A program made the translations under genes and the position numbers. A DNA stretch of 64,000 nucleotides from Candidatus Methylomirabilota bacterium (GTDB taxonomy: Bacteria > Methylomirabilota > Methylomirabilia > Rokubacteriales > CSP1-6): NCBI GenBank assembly GCA_035709005.1, contig DASTFB010000070.1:5223-69222 (forward strand). The letters are read 5' to 3'. The notes under the pieces were generated by a model. It worked only from the letters and a program-made list of their open reading frames with translations. It did not search any database and had not been told where the DNA came from. Position 1 is the stretch's first letter. The number at the start of each line of letters is the position of its first letter. Positions 19,456 through 59,663 of the stretch are shown here, piece after piece.

Positions 19456-20099
19456 CCAGCCGCGGGCAGTAGAAGCGAAACCTCGGCGCCGCCTTCGGAA
19501 GGGTTGCCGAACACGAGGGCGCCGCCGTGAAGCCGCGCGACCCGCTCCGCCGTGACCAGCCCCAGCGTTGGCCGGCCGCTGCTCGCCGACACGGCGAGCC
19601 GGATCAGGGCGCGCGGGTTGGTCGTCCGTAAGCCGACGCCCCAGTCCCGCACGACGAGCGCCACCCGCCCCTCACCGACGGGCCGGAAGCTCACCTCCGG
19701 TGGCCGCCGGCCGGGGCCGGCCGCCTCCGTGGCAGCCAGGGCATTGCGGATGAGATGACTGACGGCCGAAGCCAGGAGCAACTCGTCGCCGAGGACCGTG
19801 GGCCAGGTTCCTTCGACGACGCTCACCCGCCCGGGGTGCCCCGCGTCCACCACCCGCCGGACCAGCCCGCCCAGGTCCAGGCGCGCCGGTGGCCGGAGCT
19901 CCAGCGCCATGACCGAAAAAGCGGCCGGCAGCAGCGTGGCCAGGCGGCTGGCCTCCTGGTGGATCGCTTCCAGGCTCTGCAGGGCCCCGGCGTCGCCGCG
20001 GCTCAGACGCTTGAGGACCTCCAGGTGCATCGTCAGCGCGTTGAGGGGCCCACGGAGATCGTGCAGCAGGCGATCCAGATCGTCGGGAAGCGAGCCCAT
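19452..20099 (-). CDS. sensor histidine kinase core (HisKA + HATPase_c, no sensor/TM domain)
   Basis: ...LLHDLRGPLNAL... H-box and an N/G-box region ...LIRNALAAT...DWGVGL...; start overlaps the NtrC-family regulator stop. Confidence 0.7.
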   Translation of the reverse strand: MGSLPDDLDRLLHDLRGPLNALTMHLEVLKRLSRGDAGALQSLEAIHQEASRLATLLPAAFSVMALELRPPARLDLGGLVRRVVDAGHPGRVSVVEGTWPTVLGDELLLASAVSHLIRNALAATEAAGPGRRPPEVSFRPVGEGRVALVVRDWGVGLRTTNPRALIRLAVSASSGRPTLGLVTAERVARLHGGALVFGNPSEGGAEVSLLLPAAG

Positions 20100-21511
20100 C
20101 AGGTGATGCGCGCCGACTTCACCGCCTGGATGCCGTATTTGGCCAGCTTGTTGTACAGCGTCTTGAGGCTGATGCCGAGCAGGGCCGCGGCCCGGCGCTT
20201 GTCCTGATTGGTTTCCTGCAGTGCCCGCAGGATGAGCTCCCGCTCCATCTCGCGAATGGGGACGATTGATCCGCTCGAGGGCGGCCGGGGCGGCTCCGTG
20301 CTCCGGAGCACATTGTCGGGCAGATGCTCGGTGCCGATGAGGCCGCTGCCGCCCAGGACCACGGCCCGCTGGATGACGTTGCGGAGCTCACGGACGTTGC
20401 CCGGCCAGCTGTAGCGATCCAGCACCTTCTCGGCCTCGGGGGTCAGCCCCCGCACCTGTCGGTTGTCCTGCCGATTGAACTCGTCGATGAAGGTGCGCAC
20501 CAGCAGCGGGATGTCTTCCTTGCGCTCCCGCAGCGCCGGCAAGCGGATCTGGAAGACGTTGAGGCGATAGAAGAGATCCTCCCGCAGCTGGCCCTGCGCC
20601 ATGGCCTCCGTAGGCACCCGGTTCGTCGCCGCGATCACCCGGACGTCGACCTGGATCTCCGTCTTCCCGCCCACCCGCCGGAAGTTGCCCTCCTGGAGGA
20701 CCCGGAGCAGCTTGGCCTGGGTGGAGTTGTCCATCTCGGCGATCTCGTCGAGGAACAGGCTGCCCGTGTCGGCCAGCTCGAAGCACCCCAGGCGCCGCTC
20801 GCTGGCGCCCGTGAAGGCACCCCGCTCGTGACCGAACAGCTCGCTCTCGATCAACGTCTCCGGGATGGCCGCGCAGTTGATCGCCACGAAGGGCTTGTTG
20901 CGGCGACTGGACAGGTCGTGGATGGTTCGGGCCACCAGCTCCTTGCCGGTACCGCTGTCGCCGAAGACCAGCACCGGCGCCGTGCTGGTGGCGGCCAGCT
21001 CGATCCAGCGGTAGACCTCCTGCATGCCCTTGGACTGCCCGACCAGCTGCCCGAAGCTGCCCTTCTGGCGGAGCTGATGGCGCAGGAAGTTCACCTCCCG
21101 CGACAGCGACTCCTGCTCGATGGACTTCTCGAGCAGCACCTGCAGCCGGGTGGCGTCGACCGGCTTCGTCAGGTAGTCGAACGCCCCGTGGCGCATCGCT
21201 TCCACCGCGCTCTCCACGGTGCCGTGCCCCGTGACCAGCAACACGATCGGCGGCCGCCCGGTCTCCTTGAGCTTCTGGAGCAGGGTGAGCCCATCCATCT
21301 CGGGCAGGACGAGGTCGGTCAGGACGACCGCCGGATGCTGGGTCTCGACCAGGTTCAGCGCCTCTTCCCCGGAGGACGCCGTCTCGACCTCGTACCCCCA
21401 TTGGCCGACGAGGCGGGCCAGACCCTCACGCTCGGCTGGCTCGTCGTCGACGACCAGAACCTTGCCGCTTCTGGTCTGCTCACGTCGCGTCGGGCTCACT
21501 GTCTCCCCCAC
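20099..21511 (-). CDS. sigma-54-dependent response regulator (NtrC family: REC + AAA+ + Fis-type HTH)
   Basis: KVLVVDDEP...DLVLPEMDG (REC), ...VLVFGDSGTGKELVA...GAFTGA... (sigma-54 interaction), C-terminal HTH. Start placed at the GTG at 21511 because the 5' extension to 21727 is Arg-rich low-complexity and overlaps the BON gene. Confidence 0.8.
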   Translation of the reverse strand: MGETVSPTRREQTRSGKVLVVDDEPAEREGLARLVGQWGYEVETASSGEEALNLVETQHPAVVLTDLVLPEMDGLTLLQKLKETGRPPIVLLVTGHGTVESAVEAMRHGAFDYLTKPVDATRLQVLLEKSIEQESLSREVNFLRHQLRQKGSFGQLVGQSKGMQEVYRWIELAATSTAPVLVFGDSGTGKELVARTIHDLSSRRNKPFVAINCAAIPETLIESELFGHERGAFTGASERRLGCFELADTGSLFLDEIAEMDNSTQAKLLRVLQEGNFRRVGGKTEIQVDVRVIAATNRVPTEAMAQGQLREDLFYRLNVFQIRLPALRERKEDIPLLVRTFIDEFNRQDNRQVRGLTPEAEKVLDRYSWPGNVRELRNVIQRAVVLGGSGLIGTEHLPDNVLRSTEPPRPPSSGSIVPIREMERELILRALQETNQDKRRAAALLGISLKTLYNKLAKYGIQAVKSARIT

Positions 21512-21531
21512 GAGCGGCTGCTGAAAGAGCC

Positions 21532-21568
21532 GTCGCGGCGCGGGGCCAACGAGACCCCGCGCCGCGAC
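21532..21568 (-). terminator. strong GC hairpin terminator (14-bp stem gtcgcggcgcgggg / ccccgcgccgcgac)
   Basis: Perfect 14-bp inverted repeat 20 nt 3' of the BON-lipoprotein stop. Confidence 0.5.
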
Positions 21569-21590
21569 CAACGAGAGCTTCCCCCCGGGC

Positions 21591-21902
21591 TTATTTGCGT
21601 TGGACCTGCAGGTTGTTGACGACGGCCTTGACGCCGCCCGCCTGCCACGCGAGCTGTTCGGCCCGGGTCTTCTGCTCCGGCGTCTCGACAGTACCGTTAA
21701 GGTAAACAGTGCCGTTGTTGGTGTCAACGTCGACGCGGGTGAGATTCGCGGCCTTGTCCGCGACCAGCTTGGACTTCACCGACGCCGTGATGCTGGCGTC
21801 GTCTATGGTCTGACCCGTCGTCTTCCCGGTCATGGCGCGGCATCCGCTGAGCAGCGACAGGATGACGGCGACCACTGCGAGAGTCTTGAACGCACGTCCC
21901 AT
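21591..21902 (-). CDS. BON-domain (OsmY-like) lipoprotein
   Basis: Lipobox ...LSLLSGC followed by a BON-like ...VKSKLVAD...LTRVDVDTNNGTVYLNGTVE... segment. Confidence 0.7.
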   Translation of the reverse strand: MGRAFKTLAVVAVILSLLSGCRAMTGKTTGQTIDDASITASVKSKLVADKAANLTRVDVDTNNGTVYLNGTVETPEQKTRAEQLAWQAGGVKAVVNNLQVQRK

Positions 21903-23440: not shown

Positions 23441-24370
23441 CTAGCCGCGGCGTCGCTCCTGGGCGCGCCGCACCCGGGCGCTTCCCAGCAGGGCACCCAG
23501 CGATTGCCGGGCGGCGAGGAACCCGGCCAGCGGATCCCCCTGGGCGAGCAGGCGCTGGCGAGCGTTGCGCAGATGGAAATCCTCAGGATAGATGCCCTGC
23601 TCGAGCTCCCGCCACTCCAGGGGCGCAGAGATGGCGGCGCCCGCATACTCCCGGACCGAGTACGGGCTCACCAGGGTGGCTCCCCGCCGGTTGCGCAGCA
23701 CGTCGATCAGGATCTTGCCGCGGCGGCGGGCCCGCCGCATGTCGAAGGTGAAGAGCGAGGGCTCCCGCTGGCGGGCCATGCGGGTGATCACCGAGGCCGC
23801 AGTCAGCACCTGATCGTAACTGTACACGGGCTCCAGGGGCACCATGACGTGCAGGCCGCGCCCGCCGGAGGTCTTGACCCAGCTGCGGATCTTGAAGCCG
23901 GCCAGAAGGCTCCGCACCAGCATGGCGGCGTTGCGGACCTCGCGAAAGGCGATCTCCGTGGGATCGATGTCGAACAGCATCACGTCGGGACGATCGATGG
24001 CCTGCACCGCCGACGCCCAGGGATGAAAGGAGATGTAGCCCAGGTTGACGAGGTAGGCCAGGGCGGCCCGCTCCCGGCCGATGAGATAGTCGGCGTAGCC
24101 CTGGGCGGTCTGGTCGCTGCGGATCCGCCGGGTAGTGATCCACGATGGCAGGCCGGGAGGCGCCGCCCGCTGGTAGACGTACTCACCGCTGTCCAGAGCC
24201 CGGAGCAGGCTGAATGGCCGGTCGACCAGGAATGGCATGAGGTGGTCGGCCATGTCCAGGTAGTAGCCGAGCAGATCCTCCTTGGTGACTCTGTCTTCCG
24301 GCCACAGGAGCGCCTCGGGGTTTGTGAACAGGATCCGACGGCCGTCGATCTCTTCGACACGCGTGCTCAT
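23441..24370 (-). CDS. non-homologous end-joining DNA polymerase domain protein (LigD PolDom / primase-polymerase)
   Basis: ...ILFTNPEALLWPEDRVTKEDLLGYY... and ...FDIDP... are LigD polymerase-domain signatures; stand-alone ~310 aa. Confidence 0.8.
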   Translation of the reverse strand: MSTRVEEIDGRRILFTNPEALLWPEDRVTKEDLLGYYLDMADHLMPFLVDRPFSLLRALDSGEYVYQRAAPPGLPSWITTRRIRSDQTAQGYADYLIGRERAALAYLVNLGYISFHPWASAVQAIDRPDVMLFDIDPTEIAFREVRNAAMLVRSLLAGFKIRSWVKTSGGRGLHVMVPLEPVYSYDQVLTAASVITRMARQREPSLFTFDMRRARRRGKILIDVLRNRRGATLVSPYSVREYAGAAISAPLEWRELEQGIYPEDFHLRNARQRLLAQGDPLAGFLAARQSLGALLGSARVRRAQERRRG

Positions 24371-24544
24371 CGCCCCCCCTGCCGCCACCCCTCGCCTGCT
24401 CCGGGGACGCCCGAGGAGGGTTCGGCGAGGAATAGGAGCCGACGTGCCTGCATCTGTTGCGTGAAGCAAGCAATTCAATTGCCACGTCTGGCGGGGGGGT
24501 GGGAAAACGAGTTCTCAGTGTTACCGGTCGGATCGAGCGCCGGG

Positions 24545-27500
24545 TCAGCCGAAGTCGTGCGACGGCACGGCGCCGCCGGGTCCCTGCAGGGGCCGGACCC
24601 GCCGCGCGCGGACGGAAACGACGCCGTCCTGGGTCTGGAGGATCCCGTCCACGAGAAGGTAGGGCGCGGCGACGAGCACGAGGCGGTGTCGCTCGAACAG
24701 TTGCGGGGTCACGATCACGTTGGCGATGCCCGTCTCGTCCTCCAGGGAAAGAAAGACGAATCCCTTGGCGGTGCCCGGGCGTTGCCGCACGATCACGCTG
24801 CCGGCCACCCGCACAACACGTCCATGGGCGACCCGGGCCAGGTCGCCGGCCCGGACGATTCCCTGGCGCGCCAGCGTCGAGCGCAGCAGGGCCAGGGGAT
24901 GGGGCCCGAGGGTCACGCCGGTGCCCGCGTAATCAGCGTCCAGACGCTCGGCCACGCTCATCTCCGGGAGCGGGCTCGGCTCGGTGGACGGCTCGGCGGC
25001 TTGCAGCAGCCCCGGAAGCACCGGGCGGGCGGCCTGCCAGAGCGCCGCCCGCCGCGTGCCGTTCAGGGCGTCGAGCGCCCCCGTGGCGGCCAGCGCGGTC
25101 AGCTCGTCGCGCTCGAGACCGGCCCGCCGGGCGAGGTCGGCGAGTGAAGCGAATGGGCGCTCGCCGCGCGCCCGGGCGATGGCCCGCCCGGCGCTCTCGC
25201 GCAATCCCTTCACGTAGCGGAGGCCTAGTCTGATTTTGAACAGGGCACGGGCACCCGGCCGGGGGAGTCCCGAGGGGGGCGTAGCCCCCTTCGGTTGAAA
25301 GTCGCCACGCCCGTGCCCCGCCGCAATCTCACCCGGCGCTGGTTTTCCTGCCCGATCAGAGTCCCGATCATCGGTCTCGGTCTCGATCGCACACAACCAG
25401 TCGGAGCGGGTGATGTCGATCGGGTGGATCGTCAGGCCGTGACGCTGGGCGTCTTTGATGATCGTGGCGGCGTGATAGAAGCCCATCGGCTGGTTGTTGA
25501 GCAGCGCGGCGTAGAATGCGGCCGGATGGTGAGCCTTGAGATAGGCGCTAGCGTAGGCCAGCAGGGCGAAGCTGGACGCGTGCGAGTTGTGGACCACGAG
25601 GTCGTTGGCGAGAAAGTTGTGGTCGCCCTCGATCTCGAGATCATAGGTGGCTCGGACGCCGACCGGCGCGATGGCGACGATCCGATCCCAGCCGAGCGAC
25701 CCGATCCGCTGATGGCGCGGCCGGCCTGTACCTCCGACCGACGGTAATGTCCGCGCGGCGGCGATATGCTCGCCGATGCCGAGGGTGGCCAGCGGGCGCC
25801 ATCCGGTCGCGGTGAGCAAAGGATGCTCGGCCGTGGCCATGATCTCTCGGCCCTGCGCGGTACGGAGCCGGTAGACCATCCGGGGCCCGCTCGACCTGGC
25901 CTCGAGCACGCGCCGACGGCTCAGACGCAGGCCCGGGGCACAGGCGAGCGTGCTGGCCAGCCGGACTTTGCCGTTCGCGACATCCTCGATCGTGATCCAC
26001 CGCCCGGTGTCGGCGTCCATCACGCGTGTCCCGCCCGCGACACATTCGGGGAAGCCGTACAGCGCGAACGCCGTGATGGCGTGCGCGATCTGGTCGGCAG
26101 CGACGCCGGTGATGCCCCGGGTGGCCATTCCCGCCCGGAGCTTCTGCTCCACCTCGGCCATCCGCCGCTCGCTGCGCTTGAAGCCGAAGGCCCGGCGGAG
26201 CTCCTCGGCTTCGGTGCCGGTGAAGCCGGCGGCCACCATGGCCATCCGGAGCAATTGCTCCTGGAAGAGGGGCACGCCCAGCGTGCGCTCGAGGATGGGC
26301 TCCAGGCTCGGGTGCGGATAACTGACGGGCTCGCGTCCGCGCCGCCGGCGGATGTAGGGATGCACCATGTCGCCCACGATGGGGCCGGGACGGATGATGG
26401 CGACCTGGACGACGAGGTCGTAGAACCGCTCGGGGCTGATGCGGGGAAGCGTGGCCATCTGGGCCCGGCTCTCCACCTGAAAGACGCCGATCGTGTCGGC
26501 CCGCTGCAGCATCGCGTAAACGGTGCGATCGTCCGGCGGCAGGTGCCCCAGATCGATGTCGGCGCCGGTTTCCCGCACGATCGCGATCGCCTCCTGGAGC
26601 ACGGACATCATCCGCAGGCCGAGCAGATCGATCTTGATGATGCCCAGCGCCGCGCAGTCATCCTTGTCCCACTGGATCACGACGCGCCCCGGCATGGTGG
26701 CCGGCTCGAGGGGCACCACGTCGTCGAGCCGGCCGGCGGCGATGACCATCCCGCCCGAATGCTGGCCGAGGTGACGGGGCAGATCTTGCAGCCGTGTCCA
26801 CAGCGCGGCGAAGGCGCGGATCCGCGGATGGCGCGGGTCGCACCCCGCTTCGGCCAGGTGCCGGGTGAGCAGATCGTTGGGGTCCTGATAGCCCCAGTTG
26901 GGGGCCAGCCGGGCCAGGCGATCCTGGAACTCGGCCGGCAGCCCCAGGGCCTTGGCCACCTCCCGGGCCGCGCTGCGGCCCCGATAGGTGATCACGTTGG
27001 CGGTCATGCCGGCGCCCAGCCGGCCGTAGCGGCGGTACACGTACTGGATCACCGCCTCCCGGCGCTCGACACTGGGCAGATCCATGTCGATGTCGGGCCA
27101 CTCGCCGCGCGCCTCCGAGAGGAAGCGCTCGAACAGGAGGTCCATGCCGACGGGATCGACGGCGGTGATGCCGAGCGCGTAGCACACGGCGCTGTTGGCC
27201 GCCGAGCCCCGCCCCTGCACCAGGATGTCGTGGGTGCGGCAGTACTCGATGATGTCCCAGACGATCAGGAAGTAGCCGGCGAGGTCGAGCCGGCCGATGA
27301 TGTCGAGCTCGTGATCGACCTGCCGGCGGGCCCGCGCGGCCAGCCGACCGCGGCCGTAGCGCTGCCGGACGCCGGCGTCCACGAGCCGGCGCAAGTGCGC
27401 CGGGGCGGTCTCACCGGGCGGCAGCGGAAAGTCGGGGAACCGGTAGCCGAGGTCCTTCAGCGTGAAGCCCAGGCGCAGGGCCAGCTCGCCGCTCTGGTGG

Positions 27501-28240
27501 ACCGCGTCGGGCAGATCCCTGAACACCCGGGTCATCGTGGGCCCATCACGCAGCTCCCGCTCGGCATTGGGGCCCAGGCGCGTGCCGGCGCGGTCGAGAT
27601 CGACCTTCTCGCGAATACAGGTGAACACGTCAGCGACCGCCCGACCGCCCGGCCGCGCGTAGAGCGGCTGGTTGGCGGCGACGAGGGCCACCCGCGCGCG
27701 CCGGGCCAGCGTGACCAGCGCCTCCAGCACGCGCTCCTGGTCCCGATCGAAGTGACGCTGCACCTCCACGAAGCAGTTGGAGCGTCCGAAGATCCCCACG
27801 AGCCGGTCGAGCCAGGCCCGCGCCTCCTCCGGGCCACCCGCGGCCAGACGGCGCGCCAGTGGGCCCCGTGCGCCACCGGTGAGACAGACCAGCCCGTCGA
27901 CGTGGCCGGTCAGGTCGTCCAGCGTGGCCACGGCCTTGCCCTTGGGAGCGCCGAGCTTCGTCCGGGTGATGAGTCGGCAAAGGTTGCGGTAGCCCTCCCG
28001 ATCCTCCACGAGCAGGGGCAGCCGCGAGCCGTCGTCGAGGGTGAGCTCGCTTCCCACCAGCGGCTTCACGCCCGCTCGCACCGCGGCCTGGTGGAACCGC
28101 GCGGCGCCGTAGAGCCCGTCGCGATCCACCAGCGCCAGCGCCGGCATCCCCCGGCGCGCCGCCTCGGCCACGAAGACATCCGGCTGCTCGGCACCCTCGA
28201 GAAACGTGAACGCGGACTGCGCGTGCAGTTCGATGAACAT
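24545..28240 (-). CDS. dnaE2: error-prone DNA polymerase DnaE2 (ImuC), interrupted by a mini-intein and a repeat-encoded insertion
   Basis: MFIELHAQSAFTFLEGA... PHP N-terminus; polymerase III alpha core; last gene of the imuA-imuB-dnaE2 cassette. Confidence 0.9.
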   Translation of the reverse strand: MFIELHAQSAFTFLEGAEQPDVFVAEAARRGMPALALVDRDGLYGAARFHQAAVRAGVKPLVGSELTLDDGSRLPLLVEDREGYRNLCRLITRTKLGAPKGKAVATLDDLTGHVDGLVCLTGGARGPLARRLAAGGPEEARAWLDRLVGIFGRSNCFVEVQRHFDRDQERVLEALVTLARRARVALVAANQPLYARPGGRAVADVFTCIREKVDLDRAGTRLGPNAERELRDGPTMTRVFRDLPDAVHQSGELALRLGFTLKDLGYRFPDFPLPPGETAPAHLRRLVDAGVRQRYGRGRLAARARRQVDHELDIIGRLDLAGYFLIVWDIIEYCRTHDILVQGRGSAANSAVCYALGITAVDPVGMDLLFERFLSEARGEWPDIDMDLPSVERREAVIQYVYRRYGRLGAGMTANVITYRGRSAAREVAKALGLPAEFQDRLARLAPNWGYQDPNDLLTRHLAEAGCDPRHPRIRAFAALWTRLQDLPRHLGQHSGGMVIAAGRLDDVVPLEPATMPGRVVIQWDKDDCAALGIIKIDLLGLRMMSVLQEAIAIVRETGADIDLGHLPPDDRTVYAMLQRADTIGVFQVESRAQMATLPRISPERFYDLVVQVAIIRPGPIVGDMVHPYIRRRRGREPVSYPHPSLEPILERTLGVPLFQEQLLRMAMVAAGFTGTEAEELRRAFGFKRSERRMAEVEQKLRAGMATRGITGVAADQIAHAITAFALYGFPECVAGGTRVMDADTGRWITIEDVANGKVRLASTLACAPGLRLSRRRVLEARSSGPRMVYRLRTAQGREIMATAEHPLLTATGWRPLATLGIGEHIAAARTLPSVGGTGRPRHQRIGSLGWDRIVAIAPVGVRATYDLEIEGDHNFLANDLVVHNSHASSFALLAYASAYLKAHHPAAFYAALLNNQPMGFYHAATIIKDAQRHGLTIHPIDITRSDWLCAIETETDDRDSDRAGKPAPGEIAAGHGRGDFQPKGATPPSGLPRPGARALFKIRLGLRYVKGLRESAGRAIARARGERPFASLADLARRAGLERDELTALAATGALDALNGTRRAALWQAARPVLPGLLQAAEPSTEPSPLPEMSVAERLDADYAGTGVTLGPHPLALLRSTLARQGIVRAGDLARVAHGRVVRVAGSVIVRQRPGTAKGFVFLSLEDETGIANVIVTPQLFERHRLVLVAAPYLLVDGILQTQDGVVSVRARRVRPLQGPGGAVPSHDFG
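25237..25345. repeat. family-B repeat element (GGGCACGGGCACCCGG...CGCCACGCCCGTGCCCCGCCGC) with nested family-A hairpin, in-frame inside dnaE2
   Basis: Same core as the tandem copies at 28244-28408 and the inverted copy at 37140-37185; encodes the ~45-aa insertion ...TETDDRDSDRAGKPAPGEIAAGHGRGDFQPKGATPPSGLPRPGARA... between conserved DnaE2 blocks. Confidence 0.5.
25586..26044 (-). other. mini-intein (153 aa, no homing-endonuclease domain) inside dnaE2
   Basis: Host junction ...ALYGFPE|CVAGGTRVMDADTG...DLVVHN|SHASSFAL... First residue Cys, terminal HN, +1 Ser; flanks reconstitute the conserved YGFPESHA(A/S)SFA motif. Confidence 0.8.
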
Positions 28241-28450: not shown

Positions 28451-29953
28451 TCAGTCGTAGATGCCATCCAGGACCCAGTGGTTGGCCATGCGATCGAGGG
28501 CGAGCCGGCACAGCGTGCCGTCGTCGAGGAGGAGGTCCCACTCGTCGCGAGCCCAGGCGCGGCCGTCCCACCACTCTCCCGAGACTCGCCAGGGCCCGGC
28601 GCACGCGACGACACGCCGGCCCACGCCGGCCCACTGCACGGACGCCGGGTGGTCGGCCGCCGCCACCACCTGCACCCTCACTGGTGGACGGATCCGCCGG
28701 AGGACCACGCTCGATACCGGCGCGGCGCCGGCGCGATCGCCCTCCTCGGTGGGAACGAAAGGCACCAGCGTGACCGGGTCCGGGTGATGGGAATCGACGA
28801 GCCGCGGCGACCCGAAGTTGTCGGGCCCCACCAGCTCGGTCAGATGAGCAACCAGGGCAGCCAGATCGCGCTGGCGCGGCGCCGGGGGCTGTCCTAGCTG
28901 TCCTTGCCCGGGCGCGACCGGCACGACGCGGGCGCTCACCGCCACCGCGGTCACCGCCGCCGCGGGTGGCCGCGCGGCGAGCTCGCAGCGGATGAGCGGG
29001 ACGAGGACCGCGCGCTCACACGCCGGCTGGGCCAGGGCGATCGCGCGCTCGTGCCGCTCGCCTGTGGTGAGCCGGAGGCGGAGATCCAGCCGGTCGGCCC
29101 ACACGTGGGCGGCGCCCAGGCGAGCGGTGAGCCGTTCGAGCACACGATCCAGCACGACGGCCAGCATCTGGAGATCCTCGATTTCCCAGTCGAGGTCCTG
29201 AGCCTCCTCCCAGAACGGTGGGGGGACGTACGGCCGGAACGGATCACGATCGTGCCCGCAAGCGAGATCGTGGAGGCGCAAGCCTTCCTGGCCCAGCCGC
29301 TCCGCCAGCCCCGCGCGCGGCAGCGCCGCCAGCTCTCCCAGCGTCCGCACCCCCCAACGCCCCAGGGTCGCCGCGGTGGTCGCCGGCAGGTCGAGGACCG
29401 CGAGCGGCGCGGTCGCGAGCACCGCCCGTTCACCGCCGGGCGGCACCACGGCGACCCGGCGGCTCGTGGCCCGCACGGCGACTCCGGCGACCGTTCGGCT
29501 GCTCGCGACACCAGCGCGGGCGGCGAGGCCCACCATTCGGGCCTGGCGCACCAGGCGCTCTGCCACGGCGCCGTCGTCACCGAACAGCCGTTGTAGGCCG
29601 GCGACATCGGCATGGACGAGCCCGGGAGCGGTGTCTTCCACACGGGGGGACACGGCGAGCGCGGCTTCGACGAGCGCATGCTGCGCCGACACCAGGGTCT
29701 CCTCGCCGAGCGCTCGGCAGACGAGGTCGGGGCAGCGTGCACGGGCCTCGCTCTCGGTCATCCTCGGCCGCACGCCGGCCTCGCGGGCGATGGCGTTGGC
29801 CTCGACCACCCGCGTCACCGGCGGCGCTCCCCGGACGATCGCCAGGGCGCGCTCGGCCAGCACCGGCTCGCCGCGCTCGGCGGCCGCCGCTGCGAAGAAC
29901 GGCACCCACACGCAGGCGACGCGGCCGCCCGGCGAGCTCACGCCGTCCACCAC
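28451..29953 (-). CDS. imuB: ImuB (Y-family polymerase-like protein of the mutagenesis cassette)
   Basis: 500 aa, ...VACVWVPFFAAAAAER... N-terminus typical of ImuB/DinB-like proteins; sits between imuA and dnaE2. Confidence 0.7.
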   Translation of the reverse strand: MVDGVSSPGGRVACVWVPFFAAAAAERGEPVLAERALAIVRGAPPVTRVVEANAIAREAGVRPRMTESEARARCPDLVCRALGEETLVSAQHALVEAALAVSPRVEDTAPGLVHADVAGLQRLFGDDGAVAERLVRQARMVGLAARAGVASSRTVAGVAVRATSRRVAVVPPGGERAVLATAPLAVLDLPATTAATLGRWGVRTLGELAALPRAGLAERLGQEGLRLHDLACGHDRDPFRPYVPPPFWEEAQDLDWEIEDLQMLAVVLDRVLERLTARLGAAHVWADRLDLRLRLTTGERHERAIALAQPACERAVLVPLIRCELAARPPAAAVTAVAVSARVVPVAPGQGQLGQPPAPRQRDLAALVAHLTELVGPDNFGSPRLVDSHHPDPVTLVPFVPTEEGDRAGAAPVSSVVLRRIRPPVRVQVVAAADHPASVQWAGVGRRVVACAGPWRVSGEWWDGRAWARDEWDLLLDDGTLCRLALDRMANHWVLDGIYD

Positions 29954-30498
29954 CGGGTGACGTCAGAGGGGACGACGCCGCCCAGGGAGCCGCGCCCGCG
30001 GAGCAGGCGCACGGCCGTGCCCACGCGGGCCAGGCGCGTCGGCGCGCCGCGCGGACCGCTCCACTCCAGCGACCGCCGGACGGCCTGGACGGCCAGCGCC
30101 GCGCCGGGACCGGCGATGCGCCGACTCGCCAGGATGAGCAAGGCCGCGCCCGACCGGCGAACGGCCAGCCGCAGTCGGAATGCGAGCGTGAGAGGCAGGC
30201 GCGGCGGACGCTCGCCGACGTCGAGCGCGACGACCGTGAACCCGGGGCACCGCACGAGACGATCAGCCACGCGCAGCGCGACATCGTGACGTCCGCCGCA
30301 ACGCACCCACAGCAGGCGCCGGAGATTCACCCCGGCGCGCGCGGCGGTCGAGGGATCGAAGGCGTGGTCGGTGTCTACCAGCGCGGCCACCGCCCCGCGC
30401 TGCGTGACTTCGCGCAAGCAATCGACGAGCAGGCTCGTGCGTCCGGACGACGGCGCACCGACGATCTCCGTGATCTCGCCCGGCACGATCATGCCCAT
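29938..30498 (-). CDS. imuA: ImuA (RecA-fold SOS cell-division-inhibitor-like protein)
   Basis: ...EITEIVGAPSSGRTSLLV... Walker-A-like ImuA motif; overlaps imuB by 16 nt. Confidence 0.65.
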   Translation of the reverse strand: MGMIVPGEITEIVGAPSSGRTSLLVDCLREVTQRGAVAALVDTDHAFDPSTAARAGVNLRRLLWVRCGGRHDVALRVADRLVRCPGFTVVALDVGERPPRLPLTLAFRLRLAVRRSGAALLILASRRIAGPGAALAVQAVRRSLEWSGPRGAPTRLARVGTAVRLLRGRGSLGGVVPSDVTRWWTA

Positions 30499-30690
30499 TA
30501 CTTATCACGTGTTGAGCCTATGACAAGGAGCCAGATATTGGTGCTCTGGCGGCGGTCACCACCAGATAAAGTGGGATCGCGGCGCACGATCCGGTTGCGA
30601 TCGAAACTGGCACAGAATCCACCGATGTGGCCCCGCGCTTGCACCTTGCCTGGCACAGAAAGCGACAGCGAGGAAACTCGAGAAGCGAAA

Positions 30691-31770
30691 ATGGCCAGGC
30701 AAATCGGGTATGCGGTGGTCGGGCTCGGCAACACCGCGCGTACAGCGATCTTGCCTGCATTCGCGCGCAGCACCGAGCATTCTCGCCTCGCCGCGGTGAT
30801 CTCCGGCGATCGCGCCAAGGCCCAGCTGGTGGCCCAGCAGTATCATGCTGCCGCCTACCATTACGAGGAGCTGCGCCAGTGCCTGCAGCGCGAGGATGTG
30901 AACGTCCTGTACATAGCCCTGCCGAACTCGATGCACTCCGACTACGCGGTGGAGGCGGCCCGCGCCGGCGTCCACGTCCTCTGCGAGCCCCCCATGGCGG
31001 TGACCGCCGACGAGTGCCGCCGCATGATCCGCACCTGCCAGACGAACCGCGTCAAACTGATGATCGCCTACCGGTTGCGGTTCCGGCCTTCCGTCCTCGA
31101 GGCCCTGGCCCTGGTGCGGGGCGGGCACATCGGGTTACCCAAGACCTTGAGCTCGGACCTGACCACGCGCGTGGAGGCCCCGGATAGCATCCGCCTGCAG
31201 CGGCGGCTGGGCGGTGGCACCGTCTACCACCTGGGAGTAGAGTGCATCCACGCCGCGCGCAGCGTGTTCGGCGCCGATCCCGCGCAGGTCATGGCCATGA
31301 CGGCCAGGACGAGCCGTCGTTACGGCGGCGACGTCGACGAGAGCGCGGTGGCGCTGATCCGGTTCCCCGACGAGCGCCTGACCCACTTCCACGCGAGCTT
31401 CGGAGAGGAGCCGTCGTCCGGCTTCACCATCTTCGGAGAAGACGGCTGGATCCACGTGGCCAACGCCTACGAGCCGCAGGCCTCCGGCCACCTCATCTTG
31501 CTGCAGCGGGAGCAGCGGCAGGAGACCTCCTTCGAGCCGACGGACGAGTACGCGGCAGTGCTCAGCCACTTCTCCACGGCCGTGCGGGAAGAGCGCGTGC
31601 CCGAGCCCACCGGTGTCGAGGGGCTTCAAGACGTCCGCGTCATCGAGGCGATCTACCGCTCGGCGCGGGACGGCCGGCCGGTGACCCTGCCGCGGCTGGC
31701 CCGCATGGCGGCGCCGGGAGCGGAGCAGGAGGCCGTCCGGTCCCCCGGCCAGCGCCAACAGGCGAGCTGA
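30691..31770 (+). CDS. Gfo/Idh/MocA-family NAD(P)-dependent oxidoreductase
   Basis: MARQIGYAVVGLGNTARTAILPAFA...; the ORF-track ORF from 29218 is a spurious extension. Confidence 0.85.
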   Translation: MARQIGYAVVGLGNTARTAILPAFARSTEHSRLAAVISGDRAKAQLVAQQYHAAAYHYEELRQCLQREDVNVLYIALPNSMHSDYAVEAARAGVHVLCEPPMAVTADECRRMIRTCQTNRVKLMIAYRLRFRPSVLEALALVRGGHIGLPKTLSSDLTTRVEAPDSIRLQRRLGGGTVYHLGVECIHAARSVFGADPAQVMAMTARTSRRYGGDVDESAVALIRFPDERLTHFHASFGEEPSSGFTIFGEDGWIHVANAYEPQASGHLILLQREQRQETSFEPTDEYAAVLSHFSTAVREERVPEPTGVEGLQDVRVIEAIYRSARDGRPVTLPRLARMAAPGAEQEAVRSPGQRQQAS

Positions 31771-34605: not shown

Positions 34606-36198
34606 CTAGCCGGCGACCGCCATTCGGCCCGGCGGCGACACCGGGGCGTAGAACGAAGGCTCACGGGCGCCGTCCAGGCATTGCCGGGTGAAGGCGATCA
34701 GGTGGTGGCTGACGACGGCGGTCTGGATGACCTGCTCGATGTCGCCACGACGGAGCAGCGGCGCGGCGAAGCGCCAGAATGTTCTTCGGTAGTCGCCGCG
34801 GACGCCGACCCGCCAGATCACCCGCCCCAGCACTCCGAGGCCCATGACCAGGTTGCGCCAGGAGCCACGGTGCGGGCTGGGCGGAAAGGCGATCCGGTTC
34901 GGGAAGGTATGGGCGACGTTGTGGGCGAACCGCGCATACACGGCGTCGGGCTCGTACACCGTCTGGATGCAGCGTAGCCAGGTGCCGAGCACGGTATCGT
35001 AGGGCAGCTTGAAGACGACGTTCGACTCCCGATCGCCGTCGGCGAGCAGCCGCCCCTCGGCCTGTAGCCGCCCCCACAGCGGGGTCTTGGGCAGGGCGTA
35101 TAGCAAATTGATGGTGAGCACGGGGATGTGGGAGGCGCGCACGAACTCGATGAGGTGATCGGCCGTCTGGGGGGTGTCCGTGTCCAGGCCGATGATGATC
35201 CCCGACACGACCTCCAGGCCGTACCCGTTGAGCTTGGCCACCGCCTCCAGGATGGGCATGCGAAGGTTCTGATCCTTGGACATGAAGCGCAGCGCCGCCA
35301 CCTCCGGCGTCTCGATGCCGCAAAAGACCGTGATGAACCCCGCCTCCCGCATGAGCGCCAGCACCCGATCGTTCTTGGCGATGTTCAGCGTCGCCTCGCA
35401 CGCGAAGCGCACCGGGTAACGGTTGCGCTGCTGCCAGGCCACCAGGTGCGGCAAGAGCTCCTGGGTGGCCCGCTGGTTGGCGATGAAGTTGTCGTCGACG
35501 AAATAGACGGCGGTGGCGCCGCCGGCCACGAGCTGGTCCAGTTCGGCCAGGACCTGCTCGGGCTTCTTCAGTCGGGGGTTCCGTCCGTACAGGGCGGGGA
35601 TATCACAGAACTCGCACGTGTAGGGACAGCCGCTGGAGAACTGGATGCTGGCGATGAAGTACCGCTGCACGGCGATACGGTCGTAGGCCGGGATCGGGAA
35701 GTCGGCGAGGGGCAGCCGCTCGCCGGTCTCGAAGCGCAGCTGGTGCTCGGGGCGGCCCCGGCTGCGGTCGATCCACTCGATCACCCGGTCGGTGGCGTCC
35801 CCGAGCTCTCCCAGATGCACGAGGTCGGCGTCGGGGTAGAACTCGGGACAGCTCGAGACCGACGGGCCACCCAGCACCACCGGCCGTCCCATCGCGTGGG
35901 CGCGAACGATGATGTCCTCGATGGCCCTGCGCTGGACGTGCATGCCGGACACCAGCACGGCGTCGGCCCAGCGGAAATCACGCGCGGCCGCCGGGGCCGC
36001 GTTCTCGTCGATGAAGCGGACCTCCCACGTGGCCGGCAGGTAGCTGGCCACCACCAGCAAGCCCTGGGGCGGCATGAACGCCCGGACCCGACGCCCGAAA
36101 AAGGGATAGGAGTGATGAAACGTTCCGAAGGACGGAGCGTAGCGCGGGGAAACACAGAGGAGGCGCCGGCGCGTGAGCGGGACGTAGCGCGTCCGCAT
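34606..36198 (-). CDS. B12-binding radical SAM protein (class B, DUF4070-type C-terminus)
   Basis: N-terminal cobalamin-binding region followed by CPYTCEFC (CxxxCxxC) radical SAM cluster motif. Confidence 0.85.
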
Positions 36199-36299
36199 AT
36201 GGGCCTGGCAAGCATAACCCATTCACCGCCCCGACGCTCAGCACCGCGCGCGTGGGAAAATGGCTGGACGATCGGCTAGAATTCGGCGCGGAGGACGGC

Positions 36300-55043: not shown

Positions 55044-56243
55044 TTAGATAATTACCTTCTTGGCGCGCAGCGCGGCGATCTCGTCCTTCGAGTAGCCGTG
55101 CTCGCCCAGCACCTGGTCGGTGTGCTCGCCCTGCAGCGGGGCCGGGCTGCGCACGCCGACGCGCATGCCGGAGAACGTGAGCGGCGTGCTGACTACCGGG
55201 ATGTCGCCCAGCTTGGGGTGGGCGACGCGGGCGATCAGGCCCGCTGCCGCCGTCTGGGGATCGTCCATGACCTGGTCCACCGTGTTGACCGGCGTGGCCG
55301 GCACGCCGGCCGTCTCCAGGAGCTTGAGCAGCGGCTCCCGGTCTTGCCGGGCGATCGCCTCCTCCAGGGCGGACTCCAGCTCGCGCCGATGCTTGACCCG
55401 TTCGATGTTGGTCGCGAAGCGGGGGTCCGTCGCCATCGATTCGAGCCCCAGGGCCAGGGCCAGTCGCTGCCAGAAGCGGTCGTTGGCCCCGGCGATGAAG
55501 ATCCACTGCCCGTCGCGGCACCGGAAGTTGCGATAGGGCGACAGTGAGGGATGCGAGGAGCCCAGCGGTCTGGGCACTGCGCCCGTGAGCAGATAGCCTT
55601 CCGCGTGGTAGTTGAGCAGATTCACGGCCGTGGCCAGCAGCGAGCCGTCGACGCGCTGGCCGAGCCCCGTGCGCTCGCGGTGCAGGAGCGCGTTCACGAT
55701 GCCGTAGGCGCAGAAGATGCCGGTGGTCAGGTCCAGGAAGGACACGCCGCAGCGCACGGGCGAGCCGTCCGGCTCCCCCGTGATCGACATGATGCCGCTG
55801 AAGGCTTGCATGAGGGCCTCGTAGCCCGCCCCCTCGGCTCGCGGCCCCGTGCGGCCAAAGGCGGAGATCGAGCAATACACCAGCCGTGGGTTGAGCGCGG
55901 CCAGGGTGTCGTAGCCGACGCCGAACGACTCCATGGCGCCGGTCCGGAAATTCTCGATCAGCACGTCGGCCCGTCCAACCAGGCGCTTGAGCACCTCGAC
56001 ACCCTCGGGCGTCTTCAAGTCGAGCGTCATGTCGCGCTTGTTGCGGTTGATGACGAGATAGGCCGCCGACTCCCCCTCCTTGTGCGGTGGCCACGTGCGC
56101 GACTCGTCCCCGCTCGCGGTGTCCTCGACCTTGACGACGTCGGCGCCGAGGTCGGCGAGCAGCATGGCGCAGAAGGGACCGGCCAGCACGCGCGAGAGAT
56201 CGAGCACCCGGACGCCGGTGAGGGACAGGGGGGGAGCGGTCAT
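55044..56243 (-). CDS. family III CoA-transferase (CaiB/BaiF-like)
   Basis: MTAPPLSLTGVRVLDLSRVLAGPFCAMLLADLGADVVKVE is the CaiB/BaiF N-terminal signature; ends 36 nt before the selenoprotein start. Confidence 0.85.
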   Translation of the reverse strand: MTAPPLSLTGVRVLDLSRVLAGPFCAMLLADLGADVVKVEDTASGDESRTWPPHKEGESAAYLVINRNKRDMTLDLKTPEGVEVLKRLVGRADVLIENFRTGAMESFGVGYDTLAALNPRLVYCSISAFGRTGPRAEGAGYEALMQAFSGIMSITGEPDGSPVRCGVSFLDLTTGIFCAYGIVNALLHRERTGLGQRVDGSLLATAVNLLNYHAEGYLLTGAVPRPLGSSHPSLSPYRNFRCRDGQWIFIAGANDRFWQRLALALGLESMATDPRFATNIERVKHRRELESALEEAIARQDREPLLKLLETAGVPATPVNTVDQVMDDPQTAAAGLIARVAHPKLGDIPVVSTPLTFSGMRVGVRSPAPLQGEHTDQVLGEHGYSKDEIAALRAKKVII

Positions 56244-56261
56244 GTGCGCTACTATAACTCC

Positions 56262-59200
56262 ATGGCCGACCTTCGCGCGGCGCTCGAGCAGCGCATTCTC
56301 GTCCTCGACGGGGCCATGGGCACGATGCTCCAGGGCCGCGGGTTGGGGGCGGCCGACTTCGGCGGCGAAGGCTACGAAGGCTGCAACGAATATCTGAATC
56401 TCACCCGCCCGGACGTCATTCGCGCGATCCACGCCGCCTACCTCGAAGCCGGCGCCGACGTCGTCTCCACCAACACCTTCGGCTGCGCGCCCTGGGTGCT
56501 GGGCGAGTACGGGCTGGCCGAGCGCGTCTGGGACATCACCCGGGCCGGGGCGGTGCTGGCCCGCGAGGCGGCCGGCCGTGGCTTCGTCGTGGGGGCCATG
56601 GGGCCGTCGACCCGGTCCATCTCGGTCACCCGCAACGTCACGCTCGACGAGGTGCGTGAGGCCTACGCCCTGCAGGCCCGCGCCCTCATCGACGGCGGCG
56701 TTGATGCGCTCCTGCTCGAGACCCAGCAGGACACGCTCAACGTCAAGGCCGCCGCCCTCGGGCTGGGCGAGGCCATGCGCGAGGCCGGCGTGGAGCTACC
56801 CGTGCTGGTGAGCGCGACCATCGAGCCGACCGGCACCATGCTGGCGGGCCAGGGCGTGGAGGCGCTCTACGTGGCCCTGCAGCACCTGGGCCTGTTCTGC
56901 ATCGGGCTGAACTGCGCCACGGGGCCCGAGTTCATGACCGACCACCTGCGCACGCTCTCCCAGATGGCCACCTGCTTCGTGAGCGTGTACCCGAACGCCG
57001 GCCTGCCCGACGAGCGCGGACAGTACGGCGAGACGCCGGAGAGCCTGGCCTTCAAGATGCGGCGCTTCGTCGACGAGGGCTGGGTCAACCTGGTGGGCGG
57101 CTGCTGCGGCACGACCCCCGCCCACATCCGGGCGCTGGCCGGGCTCGTCCGCGACCGGCCGCCCCGCGTGCCGGCCGCCCGCGAGGTCCGCGCGGTGAGC
57201 GGCATCGAGGTGCTCTATCCCACCGAGGACAACCGGCCGATCTTCGTGGGGGAGCGGACCAACGTCATCGGCTCCCGGCGCTTCAAGGAGCTCATCGTCG
57301 CCGACCGTGTCGACGAGGCGGCCGAGATCGGCCGGGCCCAGGTGCGCGGTGGCGCCCAGGTGCTCGACGTCTGCCTGGCCAACCCCGACCGCGACGAGGC
57401 GGCCGACATGGACCGCTTCATGGCGGCCCTCACCCGCATGGTGAAGGTCCCGCTGATGATCGACTCCACCGACGCCGCCGTGCTCGAGCTGGCCCTCAAG
57501 CGCTGCCAGGGCAAGGCCATCGTCAACTCCATCAACCTGGAGGACGGCGAGGAGCGCTTCGCGCGGGTCTGTCCCCTGCTGCGGCGCTACGGCGCCGCCG
57601 TCGTGGTGGGCTGCATCGACGAGGACAAGCAGCAGGGTATGGCCGTCACCGCGGCTCGCAAGCTGGCCATCGCGGAGCGCTCCCACGCGTTGCTCTGCCA
57701 GAAGTACGGCCTGGCCGCCCGGGACCTGATCTTCGACCCTCTCGTCTTCCCCGTGGGCACGGGCGACCAGAACTACGTGGGCTCGGCCCAGCAGACCATC
57801 GAGGGCGTGCGTCTCATCCGGGAGCGGTTCCCCGAGTGCGCCACCATTCTGGGGATCTCCAACGTCTCGTTCGGTTTGCCCCCGGCCGGGCGCGAGGTCC
57901 TCAACGCCGTCTTCCTCTACCACTGCACCAAGGCCGGGCTCGACTACGCCATCGTCAACACCGAGCGGCTCGAGCGCTACGCCTCCATCCCCGAGGAGGA
58001 GCGGCGGCTCGCCGAGGACCTGCTGTTCAACCGGGGCGCCGATCCGGTGGCAGCGTTCGCCGCGCACTTCCGGGGACGCCAGAAGGCCGCGCCGGTGAAG
58101 TCCGCGCTGAGCCTGGACGAGCGTCTGGCCCGCTACATCGTCGAGGGCAGCCGGGACGGGCTCATCGAGGACCTCGAGGCCAAGCGCGCGGAGGCCGCGC
58201 CCCTGGACATCATCAACGGCCCCCTGATGCGGGGCATGGACGAGGTCGGCCGCCTCTTCAACGACAACCAGCTCATCGTGGCCGAAGTGCTCCAGTCGGC
58301 CGAGGCCATGAAGGCCGCCGTGGCCTACCTCGAGCGGTTCATGGACAAGGCGGAGACGGCCACCCGGGGCGTGTTCCTGTTGGCCACCGTGAAGGGCGAC
58401 GTGCACGACATCGGCAAGAACCTGGTCGAGATCATCCTGGCCAACAACGGCTATCGGGTGATCAACCTGGGCATCAAGGTGCCGCCCGAGACCTTGATCG
58501 CGGCCTGCCACGAGCACAAGCCCGACGCCATCGGGCTCTCCGGGCTGCTGGTGAAATCAGCGCAGCAGATGGTGGTGACCGCCCAGGATTTCCGGGCCGC
58601 CGGCATCGACATCCCCTTGTTCGTGGGCGGCGCCGCCCTCACCCGGAAGTTCACGGCCACCCGCATCGCGCCCGAGCACTCGGGCCTGACCCTCTACGCG
58701 AAGGACGCGATGGAGGGGCTCGATCTGGCCAACCAGCTCTTCGCCGCCCCGACGCGGGAGGCTCTGATCGCGCGTGTCCGCCGCGAGCAGGCAGCGCTGG
58801 GAGGCGACGGGTCCTCCGATACGACGACCGCGGCCCCGGCCACGGCCGCGCCGGCGCGCTCGGCGGTGGAGCCGGTGGAGCCGCCGGTGCCGCCCGACCT
58901 GGAGCTCCACGTCCTGCGCGACGTGCCGCTCGCTCACATCTTCCCGTACCTGAACCTCCAGATGCTCTACGGCAAGCACCTGGGGCTGCGGGGCCTGGTG
59001 TCGCGGCTGCTGCAGGCCGGGGACGCCAAGGCCCGCGAGATCCACCAGGTGGTGGAGGCGCTCCAGCAGGAAGCCATCCGCGACCGGCTCCTGGTGGCCC
59101 ACGGCCTCTACCGCTGGTTCCGGGCCCGCGCGGCCGGCGACGCGGTCCTGATCTTCGACGAGGCCGGGCGCGAGCTGGCGCGCTTCGACTTTCCCCGCCA

Positions 59201-59663
59201 GCCCGACGGCGAGCGGCTGTGCCTGGCCGACTACGTGCGAGACGACCGCGACGACTACCTGGCCGCCTTCGCCGTCACCTGCGGCAGCGGCGTGCGCGAG
59301 CGGGCCGAGACGCTCAAGAGCCGCGGCGAATACCTCAAGTCGCACGCCCTGCAGGCCCTGGCCATCGAGAGCGCGGAGGCCTTGGCCGAGATGCTCCACG
59401 CCCGCCTGCGCACGTTGTGGGGGTTCCCCGATCCCGCCGACGTGACCGTCGCCGACAAGCTCAAGGGCCAGTACCGCGGCATCCGCGTGTCGTTCGGCTA
59501 CCCCGCGTGTCCCAACCTGGCCGACCAGGCCACGCTGTGGAGCCTGCTCGAGCCCGAGCAGATCGGGATCAGCCTCACCGAGGGCTTCATGATGGACCCC
59601 GAGGCGTCGGTCTCGGCCCTCGTCTTCCACCACCCTCGGGCCCGGTACTTCAAGGCCGGCTGA
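56262..59663 (+). CDS. metH: cobalamin-dependent methionine synthase
   Basis: Homocysteine-binding N-terminus (LVLDGAMGTML), pterin-binding, B12-binding DVHDIGKNLV, AdoMet reactivation domain; 1133 aa. The ORF-track 5' extension from 55551 is spurious. Confidence 0.9.
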   Translation: MADLRAALEQRILVLDGAMGTMLQGRGLGAADFGGEGYEGCNEYLNLTRPDVIRAIHAAYLEAGADVVSTNTFGCAPWVLGEYGLAERVWDITRAGAVLAREAAGRGFVVGAMGPSTRSISVTRNVTLDEVREAYALQARALIDGGVDALLLETQQDTLNVKAAALGLGEAMREAGVELPVLVSATIEPTGTMLAGQGVEALYVALQHLGLFCIGLNCATGPEFMTDHLRTLSQMATCFVSVYPNAGLPDERGQYGETPESLAFKMRRFVDEGWVNLVGGCCGTTPAHIRALAGLVRDRPPRVPAAREVRAVSGIEVLYPTEDNRPIFVGERTNVIGSRRFKELIVADRVDEAAEIGRAQVRGGAQVLDVCLANPDRDEAADMDRFMAALTRMVKVPLMIDSTDAAVLELALKRCQGKAIVNSINLEDGEERFARVCPLLRRYGAAVVVGCIDEDKQQGMAVTAARKLAIAERSHALLCQKYGLAARDLIFDPLVFPVGTGDQNYVGSAQQTIEGVRLIRERFPECATILGISNVSFGLPPAGREVLNAVFLYHCTKAGLDYAIVNTERLERYASIPEEERRLAEDLLFNRGADPVAAFAAHFRGRQKAAPVKSALSLDERLARYIVEGSRDGLIEDLEAKRAEAAPLDIINGPLMRGMDEVGRLFNDNQLIVAEVLQSAEAMKAAVAYLERFMDKAETATRGVFLLATVKGDVHDIGKNLVEIILANNGYRVINLGIKVPPETLIAACHEHKPDAIGLSGLLVKSAQQMVVTAQDFRAAGIDIPLFVGGAALTRKFTATRIAPEHSGLTLYAKDAMEGLDLANQLFAAPTREALIARVRREQAALGGDGSSDTTTAAPATAAPARSAVEPVEPPVPPDLELHVLRDVPLAHIFPYLNLQMLYGKHLGLRGLVSRLLQAGDAKAREIHQVVEALQQEAIRDRLLVAHGLYRWFRARAAGDAVLIFDEAGRELARFDFPRQPDGERLCLADYVRDDRDDYLAAFAVTCGSGVRERAETLKSRGEYLKSHALQALAIESAEALAEMLHARLRTLWGFPDPADVTVADKLKGQYRGIRVSFGYPACPNLADQATLWSLLEPEQIGISLTEGFMMDPEASVSALVFHHPRARYFKAG

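Follow-up and report, generated by a model that had tools for sequence, protein, structure and literature searches.

The dnaE2 gene and its insert

The window analysed here is a stretch of 64,000 nucleotides from a Candidatus Methylomirabilota bacterium (assembly GCA_035709005.1, contig DASTFB010000070.1, positions 5,223 to 69,222 of the forward strand). Its minus strand encodes the error-prone DNA polymerase DnaE2, also known as ImuC, in a long open reading frame (ORF) that carries an in-frame insert of 153 codons, a mini-intein. The parts of the interrupted gene, in window coordinates, are as follows.

24545..28240, minus strand: dnaE2 (imuC) precursor gene including the intein; 1231 codons plus stop, an uninterrupted ORF with an NF004225 match above cut-off and the Pfam domains named below
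26045..28240, minus strand: part coding for the N-extein, amino acids 1-732, ending ...AFALYGFPE; NF004225 aligns residues 2-734 with profile positions 6-740
25586..26044, minus strand: mini-intein of 153 amino acids, assigned to class 1 and the HINT fold by Pfam and NCBIfam models, phmmer, AlphaFold2 (AF2) and Foldseek
26006..26044, minus strand: block A, CVAGGTRVMDADT, which contributes the nucleophile Cys1; all 56 of the 56 related mini-inteins have C1, G4 and T6
25940..25942, minus strand: Cys35, non-catalytic, in the motif T-L-A-C; kept in 76 of 77 inteins at the DnaE2 site
25823..25834, minus strand: block B, T71-A-E-H74 (TxxH), predicted to assist the N-S acyl shift; 55 of the 56 related mini-inteins have T71 and all 56 have H74, and the block aligns with TANH of Ssp DnaB
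25700..25750, minus strand: linker and endonuclease-deletion scar, TLPSVGGTGRPRHQRIG, intein residues 99-115, from model confidence (below 50 at 101-113) and alignment with the intein of locus L044
25586..25648, minus strand: blocks F and G, TYDLEIEGDHNFLANDLVVHN, with D135, H152 and N153; all 56 related mini-inteins share D135, H142, N143, F144, H152 and N153, and the TIGR01443 cut-off is passed
24545..25585, minus strand: part coding for the C-extein, amino acids 886-1231 plus stop, beginning with Ser+1 of SHASSFAL; covered by the NF004225 match of the spliced protein

Translated from the reverse complement, the insert reads CVAGGTRVMDADTG...NDLVVHN; it runs CVAGGTRVMDADTGRW...HNFLANDLVVHN, beginning with CVAGG and ending with VVHN. 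It occupies residues 733-885 of the 1231-residue product. The ORF at 24545..28240 is the only long one with a coding-type GC content at third codon positions (GC3) across the region, and it contains neither a stop nor a frameshift. The initial annotation of this DNA had described the same sequence, and its coordinates (25586-26044) and length of 153 amino acids proved exact on translation; the strand needed correction to minus. The plus-strand reading of 25586..26044 is a nonsense frame containing a stop and was rejected. Upstream the intein is flanked by ...AFALYGFPE (AITAFALYGFPE) and downstream by SHASSFALLAYASAYL (SHASSFAL...), with the codons of Cys1 at 26042..26044, Asn153 at 25586..25588 and Ser+1 (Ser886) at 25583..25585, all on the minus strand. 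The base composition of intein and exteins is nearly equal (GC 69.9% versus 71.3%; GC3 84% versus 89%), which indicates that the element is a long-term resident of a high-GC genome and not a recent import. Searching all six frames of the window with the family hidden Markov model revealed no second intein, only the one in dnaE2.

The host protein matched the NCBIfam model NF004225, "error-prone DNA polymerase", with 1240.8 bits (cut-off 939), but stayed under the cut-off of 1002 for the replicative DnaE equivalog NF004226 both before (661.7 bits) and after (686.4 bits) removal of the intein. In addition to Intein_splicing, its Pfam domains comprise PHP, DNA_pol3_alpha, DNA_pol3_finger, HHH_6 and an OB-fold. 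On these profile matches the host is DnaE2/ImuC, an error-prone polymerase of the C family. The initial annotation had named the same host, and the imuB- and imuA-like genes directly upstream are in keeping with it.

The insert is a class 1 mini-intein

Profile, sequence and structure searches all led to inteins. The Pfam model Intein_splicing matched the insert with an E-value of 2e-14 (54.1 bits, cut-off 35.8), and the models for intein N- and C-termini, TIGR01445 and TIGR01443, reached 42.8 and 28.6 bits (cut-offs 24.5 and 15.6). Among NCBIfam models, the 153 amino acids were matched best by one for intein-containing DnaB, in its intein part (110 bits). A phmmer search of the PDB placed the Ssp DnaB mini-intein 1mi8 at the top (2e-23, residues 2-152), followed by the Npu DnaB and Mtu RecA mini-inteins. 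The AF2 model, built with seven family sequences, was all-beta with a mean predicted local distance difference test score (pLDDT) of 89.3 and a predicted template modelling (TM) score of 0.81; only residues 101-113 fell below a pLDDT of 50. When this model was compared with the PDB in Foldseek, the top ranks were taken by inteins only (Ssp DnaB, Mtu RecA and Npu DnaB; TM 0.83-0.86, probability 1.00), while Hedgehog and bacterial intein-like (BIL) domains ranked far lower (TM ~0.67-0.75).

The catalytic positions of a class 1 intein are complete: Cys1, Thr71 and His74 in block B, Asp135 in block F, His152-Asn153 in block G, and Ser+1. Cys1, the C-terminal His-Asn and the +1 Ser had already been recognised in the initial annotation and are all present; the block B Thr and His and the block F Asp extend that list. 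Neither Pfam nor NCBIfam detected a LAGLIDADG, HNH or other endonuclease family in the 153 residues, and a disordered linker of 13 residues occupies the endonuclease position, which upholds the earlier call of a mini-intein. On sequence and model evidence, the segment is a class 1 mini-intein of the HINT superfamily.

Two other assignments were ruled out. Class 3 inteins lack an N-terminal nucleophile and have an internal block F Cys in a WCT triplet, which does not fit the presence of Cys1 or block F position 4, where the window's intein has Asp135. BIL domains belong to variable, non-conserved host proteins and mostly do without the canonical +1 nucleophile ligation chemistry. A BIL domain is at odds with a host site in a conserved polymerase motif, with the His-Asn/Ser junctions (a slash marks a splice junction here and below) and with the rank of BIL folds far below inteins.

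Extein continuity after removal of the intein

Removing the 459 nucleotides yields a protein of 1078 amino acids, which NF004225 matches in a single stretch rather than two (residues 2-1067, profile positions 6-1034) and with a higher score, 1266.3 bits. A query of 146 residues spanning the spliced junction aligned without a gap at the junction to Pol III alpha of Taq (AFANYGFNKSHAAAYSLL; YGFNKSHAAAY) and of E. coli (KFAGYGFNKSHSAAYAL; YGFNKSHSAAY). By a count along the Pol III alpha alignment, Lys758 and Ser759 of the E. coli protein flank the insertion point. The spliced-junction search also found thousands of DnaE2 fragments, the best 120 of which span the junction at 73-87% identity, none of them (0 of 120) with an intein domain. 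The residues F-A-L-Y-G-F-P-E-S-H are invariant and ungapped in an alignment of seven intein-less DnaE2 fragments. The initial annotation held that the flanks are contiguous in intein-free proteins and proposed removing the 459 nucleotides and aligning the flanks to intein-less DnaE2. These alignments, to intein-less alleles 74-87% identical across the junction, as well as those to the Taq and E. coli proteins, are gap-free, and removal of the segment restores a contiguous conserved motif. At this site the target sequence of intein-less dnaE2 reads ...TACGGCTTCCCCGAA / TCGCACGCG..., and the expected ligated-junction peptide of mature DnaE2 is YGFPESHASSFALLAYASAYLK.

Relationship to known inteins

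The Ssp DnaB mini-intein of Synechocystis PCC 6803 (PDB 1mi8, 6frg/6frh) is the best match of the window's intein in the PDB, both in sequence (2e-23, with small gaps only) and in fold (TM 0.80-0.84, 32-35% identity). Both have Cys1 and Ser+1, TxxH in block B, blocks F and G of the form "...D-L-x-V-x-G-x-HNF-x-AN-x-x-x-VHN/S", and a linker at the endonuclease position. They differ in that the Ssp intein resides in the DnaB helicase and lacks a Cys at the position of Cys35, and its mini form is a laboratory construct, unlike the natural deletion here. The splicing domain of the Mtu RecA intein (PDB 2imz, 3ifj, 2in0) is also similar (E ~1e-14 over residues 1-153; TM 0.83-0.86, root-mean-square deviation 1.7-2.9 Å) and is likewise class 1, with Cys1 and a parent of the LAGLIDADG type. 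Its host is RecA, however, and the solved form is an engineered mini-intein. The native +1 residue of the Mtu RecA intein is Cys.

Inteins are documented in Pol III alpha, with a hot spot in the fingers, where sites a-d and g lie within 75 residues and site a holds the cyanobacterial split intein (Novikova et al. 2016, PMC4760082). The native exteins of this split DnaE intein read AEY/CFNK (PMC3759424). Like the window's intein, the split inteins of Ssp and Npu DnaE have the alpha subunit of a C-family polymerase as host and sit in the same finger-domain motif and hot spot. AEY/CFNK corresponds to ALY/GFPE here, so that the window's site, YGFPE/SH, lies four residues downstream of site a. In contrast to the contiguous intein of DnaE2 with its Ser+1, the split DnaE intein acts in trans, has Cys+1 and belongs to the replicative DnaE1, and the two are 16-19% identical. 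The shifted site, the contiguous gene and this low identity rule out the cyanobacterial split allele of site a.

Full-length inteins with a LAGLIDADG domain occupy the same site in metagenome-assembled genomes (MAGs) of Methylomirabilota, Rokubacteria, Steroidobacteraceae and Kofleriaceae. These inteins, which include those of loci L044, L050 and L054, are 422-438 amino acids long, and Cys35 is found in all but L054. The literature that we searched contained no paper describing a DnaE2 intein specifically; besides the cyanobacterial split DnaE, it yielded surveys of C-family polymerases in which inteins had been excised before analysis. The intein kind itself is well known, but the family of alleles at the DnaE2 site, which is widespread, was apparently undescribed in the literature searched.

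Distribution of inteins at the DnaE2 site

When one genome for each GTDB species was scanned with a sequence pattern, 205 species genomes were found to encode a relative of the intein, and 80 loci were kept. A complete intein is present in 76 of these at the identical site, ...YGFP(E/Q)/C...HN/SH(A/S)..., and three of the other four share the N-junction but are truncated by the contig end or interrupted by a stop; the fourth is counted as unassigned. Ser+1 was found at every C-junction recovered. According to the record titles, the hosts of the 80 loci are Steroidobacteraceae and other Gammaproteobacteria or Pseudomonadota (48), Methylomirabilota/"Rokubacteria" (20), Myxococcota or "delta" (6), Acidobacteriota (2), Armatimonadota (1) and others (3). 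By length the inteins form three classes.

Mini: 137-176 amino acids; 55 loci and the window
Intermediate, partly deleted: 278-395 amino acids; 6 loci
Full-length, with LAGLIDADG endonuclease: 422-438 amino acids; 15 loci

The only public sequence that is 100% identical to the window's intein is a 904-bp contig in ENA (P0001). Its predicted protein departs from the window's DnaE2 after "...PGARAL", within the low-complexity insertion of that protein, where the repeat-like sequence makes a frameshift or assembly difference likely. A scan of viral contigs returned only distant or partial intein relatives, with no allele of the DnaE2 site and no close relative.

Three of the related loci have peculiarities. 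The same-site intein of L057 (Rokubacteria MAG, CAWIZN010000044.1, 6001..) has an in-frame stop after residue 258, in the endonuclease region, which represents either a disrupted allele or an assembly error. L027 (DASRWT010000072.1), titled Candidatus Nitrosocosmicus sp., has the same junction and an extein 53% identical to that of the window. L062, titled "uncultured Firmicutes", encodes an intein relative whose junction was not matched by the search pattern. The contigs of L027 and L062 are probably binning contamination and not from true archaeal and Firmicute hosts.

Endonuclease loss and probable horizontal spread

Full-length inteins of the family contain two LAGLIDADG motifs, LADLIAEGN and LLARLWEGDG, and Pfam LAGLIDADG_3 matches the 423-residue allele of L044 at 3e-19. 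The linker of the window's intein, TLPSVGGTGRPRHQRI, aligns to ALPSVGRKRWPRHHLI of L044 with 9 of 16 residues identical. In L044 that segment leads directly into the first LAGLIDADG helix ("VLADLIAEGN"). After the linker, the window's intein picks up again at GSLGWDRIV, which matches GSHLYWDRIT of L044, and the low-confidence linker of the AF2 model coincides with the scar segment aligned to this lead-in. The alignment indicates that the window's intein is an in-frame deletion derivative, some 270 residues shorter, of an endonuclease-bearing intein. Judged from this alignment, the intein is not primordially small but keeps a remnant of about 16 residues of the lead-in to the LAGLIDADG domain, which its closest relatives still have in full. 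Other mini-inteins of the family have different deletion breakpoints and the intermediates have partial deletions, which indicates that the endonuclease was lost many times independently.

The closest host, the Methylomirabilota MAG of L044, still carries the 423-residue intein, with an extein 82% identical to that of the window. The splicing domain of the window's intein is 65-70% identical to the full-length inteins of the nearest hosts. Within Methylomirabilota, divergence is faster in the intein (56-70% identity) than in the extein (64-82%). Between Methylomirabilota and Steroidobacteraceae, the intein is the more conserved of the two (55-63% versus 42-49%). Stronger conservation of an intein than of its host gene between phyla points to horizontal spread, and transfer of the intein by homing between phyla would be the simplest explanation of these pairwise identities.

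On these comparisons, the element descends from an intein of ~423 residues with a LAGLIDADG homing endonuclease that would target the dnaE2 site. In the lineage of the window, ~270 endonuclease residues were deleted in frame, leaving the disordered scar of 13-17 residues. The scarred element would no longer be able to home and would be inherited vertically, as a passenger that needs to splice for DnaE2 function.

Predicted splicing and alternative explanations

Based on its conserved residues and on its relatives Ssp DnaB and Mtu RecA, we infer that the intein would follow the class 1 route. The 1231-residue precursor would be translated first, after which Cys1, together with Thr71 and His74 of block B, would bring about an N-S acyl shift at the Glu-Cys bond. 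Attack of Ser+1 on the thioester would give a branched ester, and cyclisation of Asn153, aided by His152, would release the 153-residue intein. An O-N shift would then form the Glu-Ser peptide bond, giving a DnaE2 of 1078 amino acids with an intact ...YGFPESHASSF... motif. Considering that the insert splits an invariant finger motif, DnaE2 activity very probably requires excision.

The catalytic residues are invariant in all 56 mini-inteins except for T71, which is present in 55. Crude Nei-Gojobori estimates against seven relatives gave ratios of nonsynonymous to synonymous substitution (dN/dS) of 0.18-0.33 for the splicing domain and 0.12-0.25 for the adjacent extein. Several observations count against a canonical, splicing mini-intein. 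The dS values of 0.6-1.2 are near saturation, which makes these ratios rough, and the best intein match in the species-genome scan is 62% identical. Residue -1 is Glu. Splicing is predicted from residue conservation and homology, and the window contains no Cheo-type LexA box (GAAC-N4-GTTC) anywhere. We nevertheless consider it very likely, from the sequence comparisons, that this is a canonical class 1 mini-intein, predicted to splice and derived from a LAGLIDADG-bearing parent.

The insert could alternatively be a decayed, splicing-dead relic, with this copy of dnaE2 effectively a pseudogene or encoding a polymerase with a permanent insertion of 153 residues. With its endonuclease already gone, the element has entered the degenerative part of the homing cycle, and the L057 intein offers an example of an in-frame stop. 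DnaE2 is non-essential, and selection for splicing could be weak for this reason. This explanation is nonetheless highly improbable, as the catalytic residues, which do not vary across the family, are all intact, the 1231-codon ORF is free of stops and frameshifts, and the splicing domain is under purifying selection similar to that on the adjacent extein. An unspliced product, with YGFPESH split, would very probably be inactive, and yet the imuA-imuB-dnaE2 cassette is conserved and syntenic. The idea that the segment is instead a lineage-specific HINT-like or BIL domain, or some other domain inserted in DnaE2, is almost certainly wrong. BIL and Hedgehog domains do share the HINT fold, albeit far down the Foldseek list, but in sequence and in fold the best matches are without exception true inteins, and a His-Asn terminus with Ser+1, placed within a motif that is invariant in a conserved enzyme, is an intein signature. 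Moreover, intein-less alleles are exactly collinear, and a LAGLIDADG homing endonuclease is present in homologues at the same site.

A further possibility is that the intein acts as a conditional, stress-sensing switch, in which Cys35 or another feature traps Cys1, for instance in a disulfide, and so gates DnaE2 and induced mutagenesis. Cys35 is as strongly conserved as the catalytic residues (76 of 77 family members) but has no counterpart in the alignment with the Ssp DnaB intein, and C1 and C35 are the sole cysteines of the window's intein. The host is a damage-response polymerase, and there is a precedent in M. smegmatis DnaB intein 1, where an intramolecular disulfide at the catalytic Cys is an oxidative-stress toggle (PMC6195587). 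The AF2 model places Cys35 in the strand of residues 31-36, two residues from the tip of the hairpin 31-36/40-46. By strand alternation, it would share a face with Leu33, Leu39 and Leu41, which suits a buried packing residue. The exceptions have small substitutes only, Ser in L054 and Gly in the fragment P0005, and both of these inteins keep Cys1. The hairpin position, the shared face and these substitutions suggest a small buried residue. Many mini-inteins of the family also hold extra, non-conserved cysteines, which speaks against a switch built on the C1-C35 pair. We regard such a switch as very unlikely. Little probability likewise attaches to its extension by analogy to the whole family at the DnaE2 site (at least 76 and perhaps ~200 species genomes in several phyla), which would have been retained after endonuclease loss as a post-translational gate on induced mutagenesis, with Cys35 tuning Cys1 under redox or other stress. 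A genuine, naturally derived mini-intein in DnaE2, which is probably active, fits the comparative data best.

Genomic neighbourhood

Two genes that complete a mutagenesis cassette lie directly upstream of dnaE2 on the same strand.

28451..29953, minus strand: homologue of imuB-like Y-family polymerases; Pfam IMS at 8.9e-17, with DinB-type NCBIfam matches below cut-off
29938..30498, minus strand: imuA-like gene for a RecA-fold protein, first gene of the cassette; Pfam RecA at 3.7e-13, with NF033429 (ImuA) and NF058630 (ImuA') below cut-off

Since both proteins fall under the NCBIfam equivalog cut-offs, their identity as ImuA- and ImuB-like proteins rests on domain content and synteny. The gene order recurs in related loci, with imuA/imuB synteny in 14 loci of Methylomirabilota/Rokubacteria, and ImuA/ImuB are 80% identical in L044. 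The imuA-like ORF is short, at 186 amino acids. No obvious SOS box was found in the region upstream of imuA (30499..30760).

Directly downstream of dnaE2 and on the same strand (23441..24478, minus) is a gene for a protein with a LigD primase-polymerase domain (Pfam LigD_Prim-Pol, 3.9e-75). The genes imuA, imuB, dnaE2 and ligD(PrimPol) form a damage-tolerance cluster, and a LigD homologue also lies downstream of dnaE2 in L019, L042, L048 and L049.

Within DnaE2 itself, a low-complexity insertion of ~46 residues, TETDDRDSDRAGKPAPGEIAAGHGRGDFQPKGATPPSGLPRPGARALF, is located at amino acids ~954-1001 (25238..25381, minus strand) in the HHH_6 region, where "CAIE" precedes and "KIRLGLRYV" follows it. 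It is absent from most intein-less relatives, and P0007 and P0016 hold unrelated insertions at the same spot, which suggests a variable disordered loop.

Other genes in the window encode a B12-dependent methionine synthase, MetH, of 1370 amino acids (55551..59663, plus strand), a B12-binding radical SAM/DUF4070 protein (34606..36222, minus strand) and a sigma-54-dependent response regulator (20099..21727, minus strand). These ordinary chromosomal neighbours are as expected for a bacterial chromosome and not for a mobile element.

Implications

For annotation, the presence of the intein means that the mature polymerase has 1078 amino acids and not 1231, and that dnaE2 should be annotated as a gene with an intein. 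A single site in a single gene displays every stage of intein decay, from empty sites through inteins of ~423 residues with a LAGLIDADG domain and partly deleted forms of 278-395 residues to many independently derived mini-inteins of 137-176 residues. Compact and natural in origin, the mini-inteins of this family are related to the Ssp DnaB intein, have Cys1 and Ser+1, and could be candidate parts for protein engineering.

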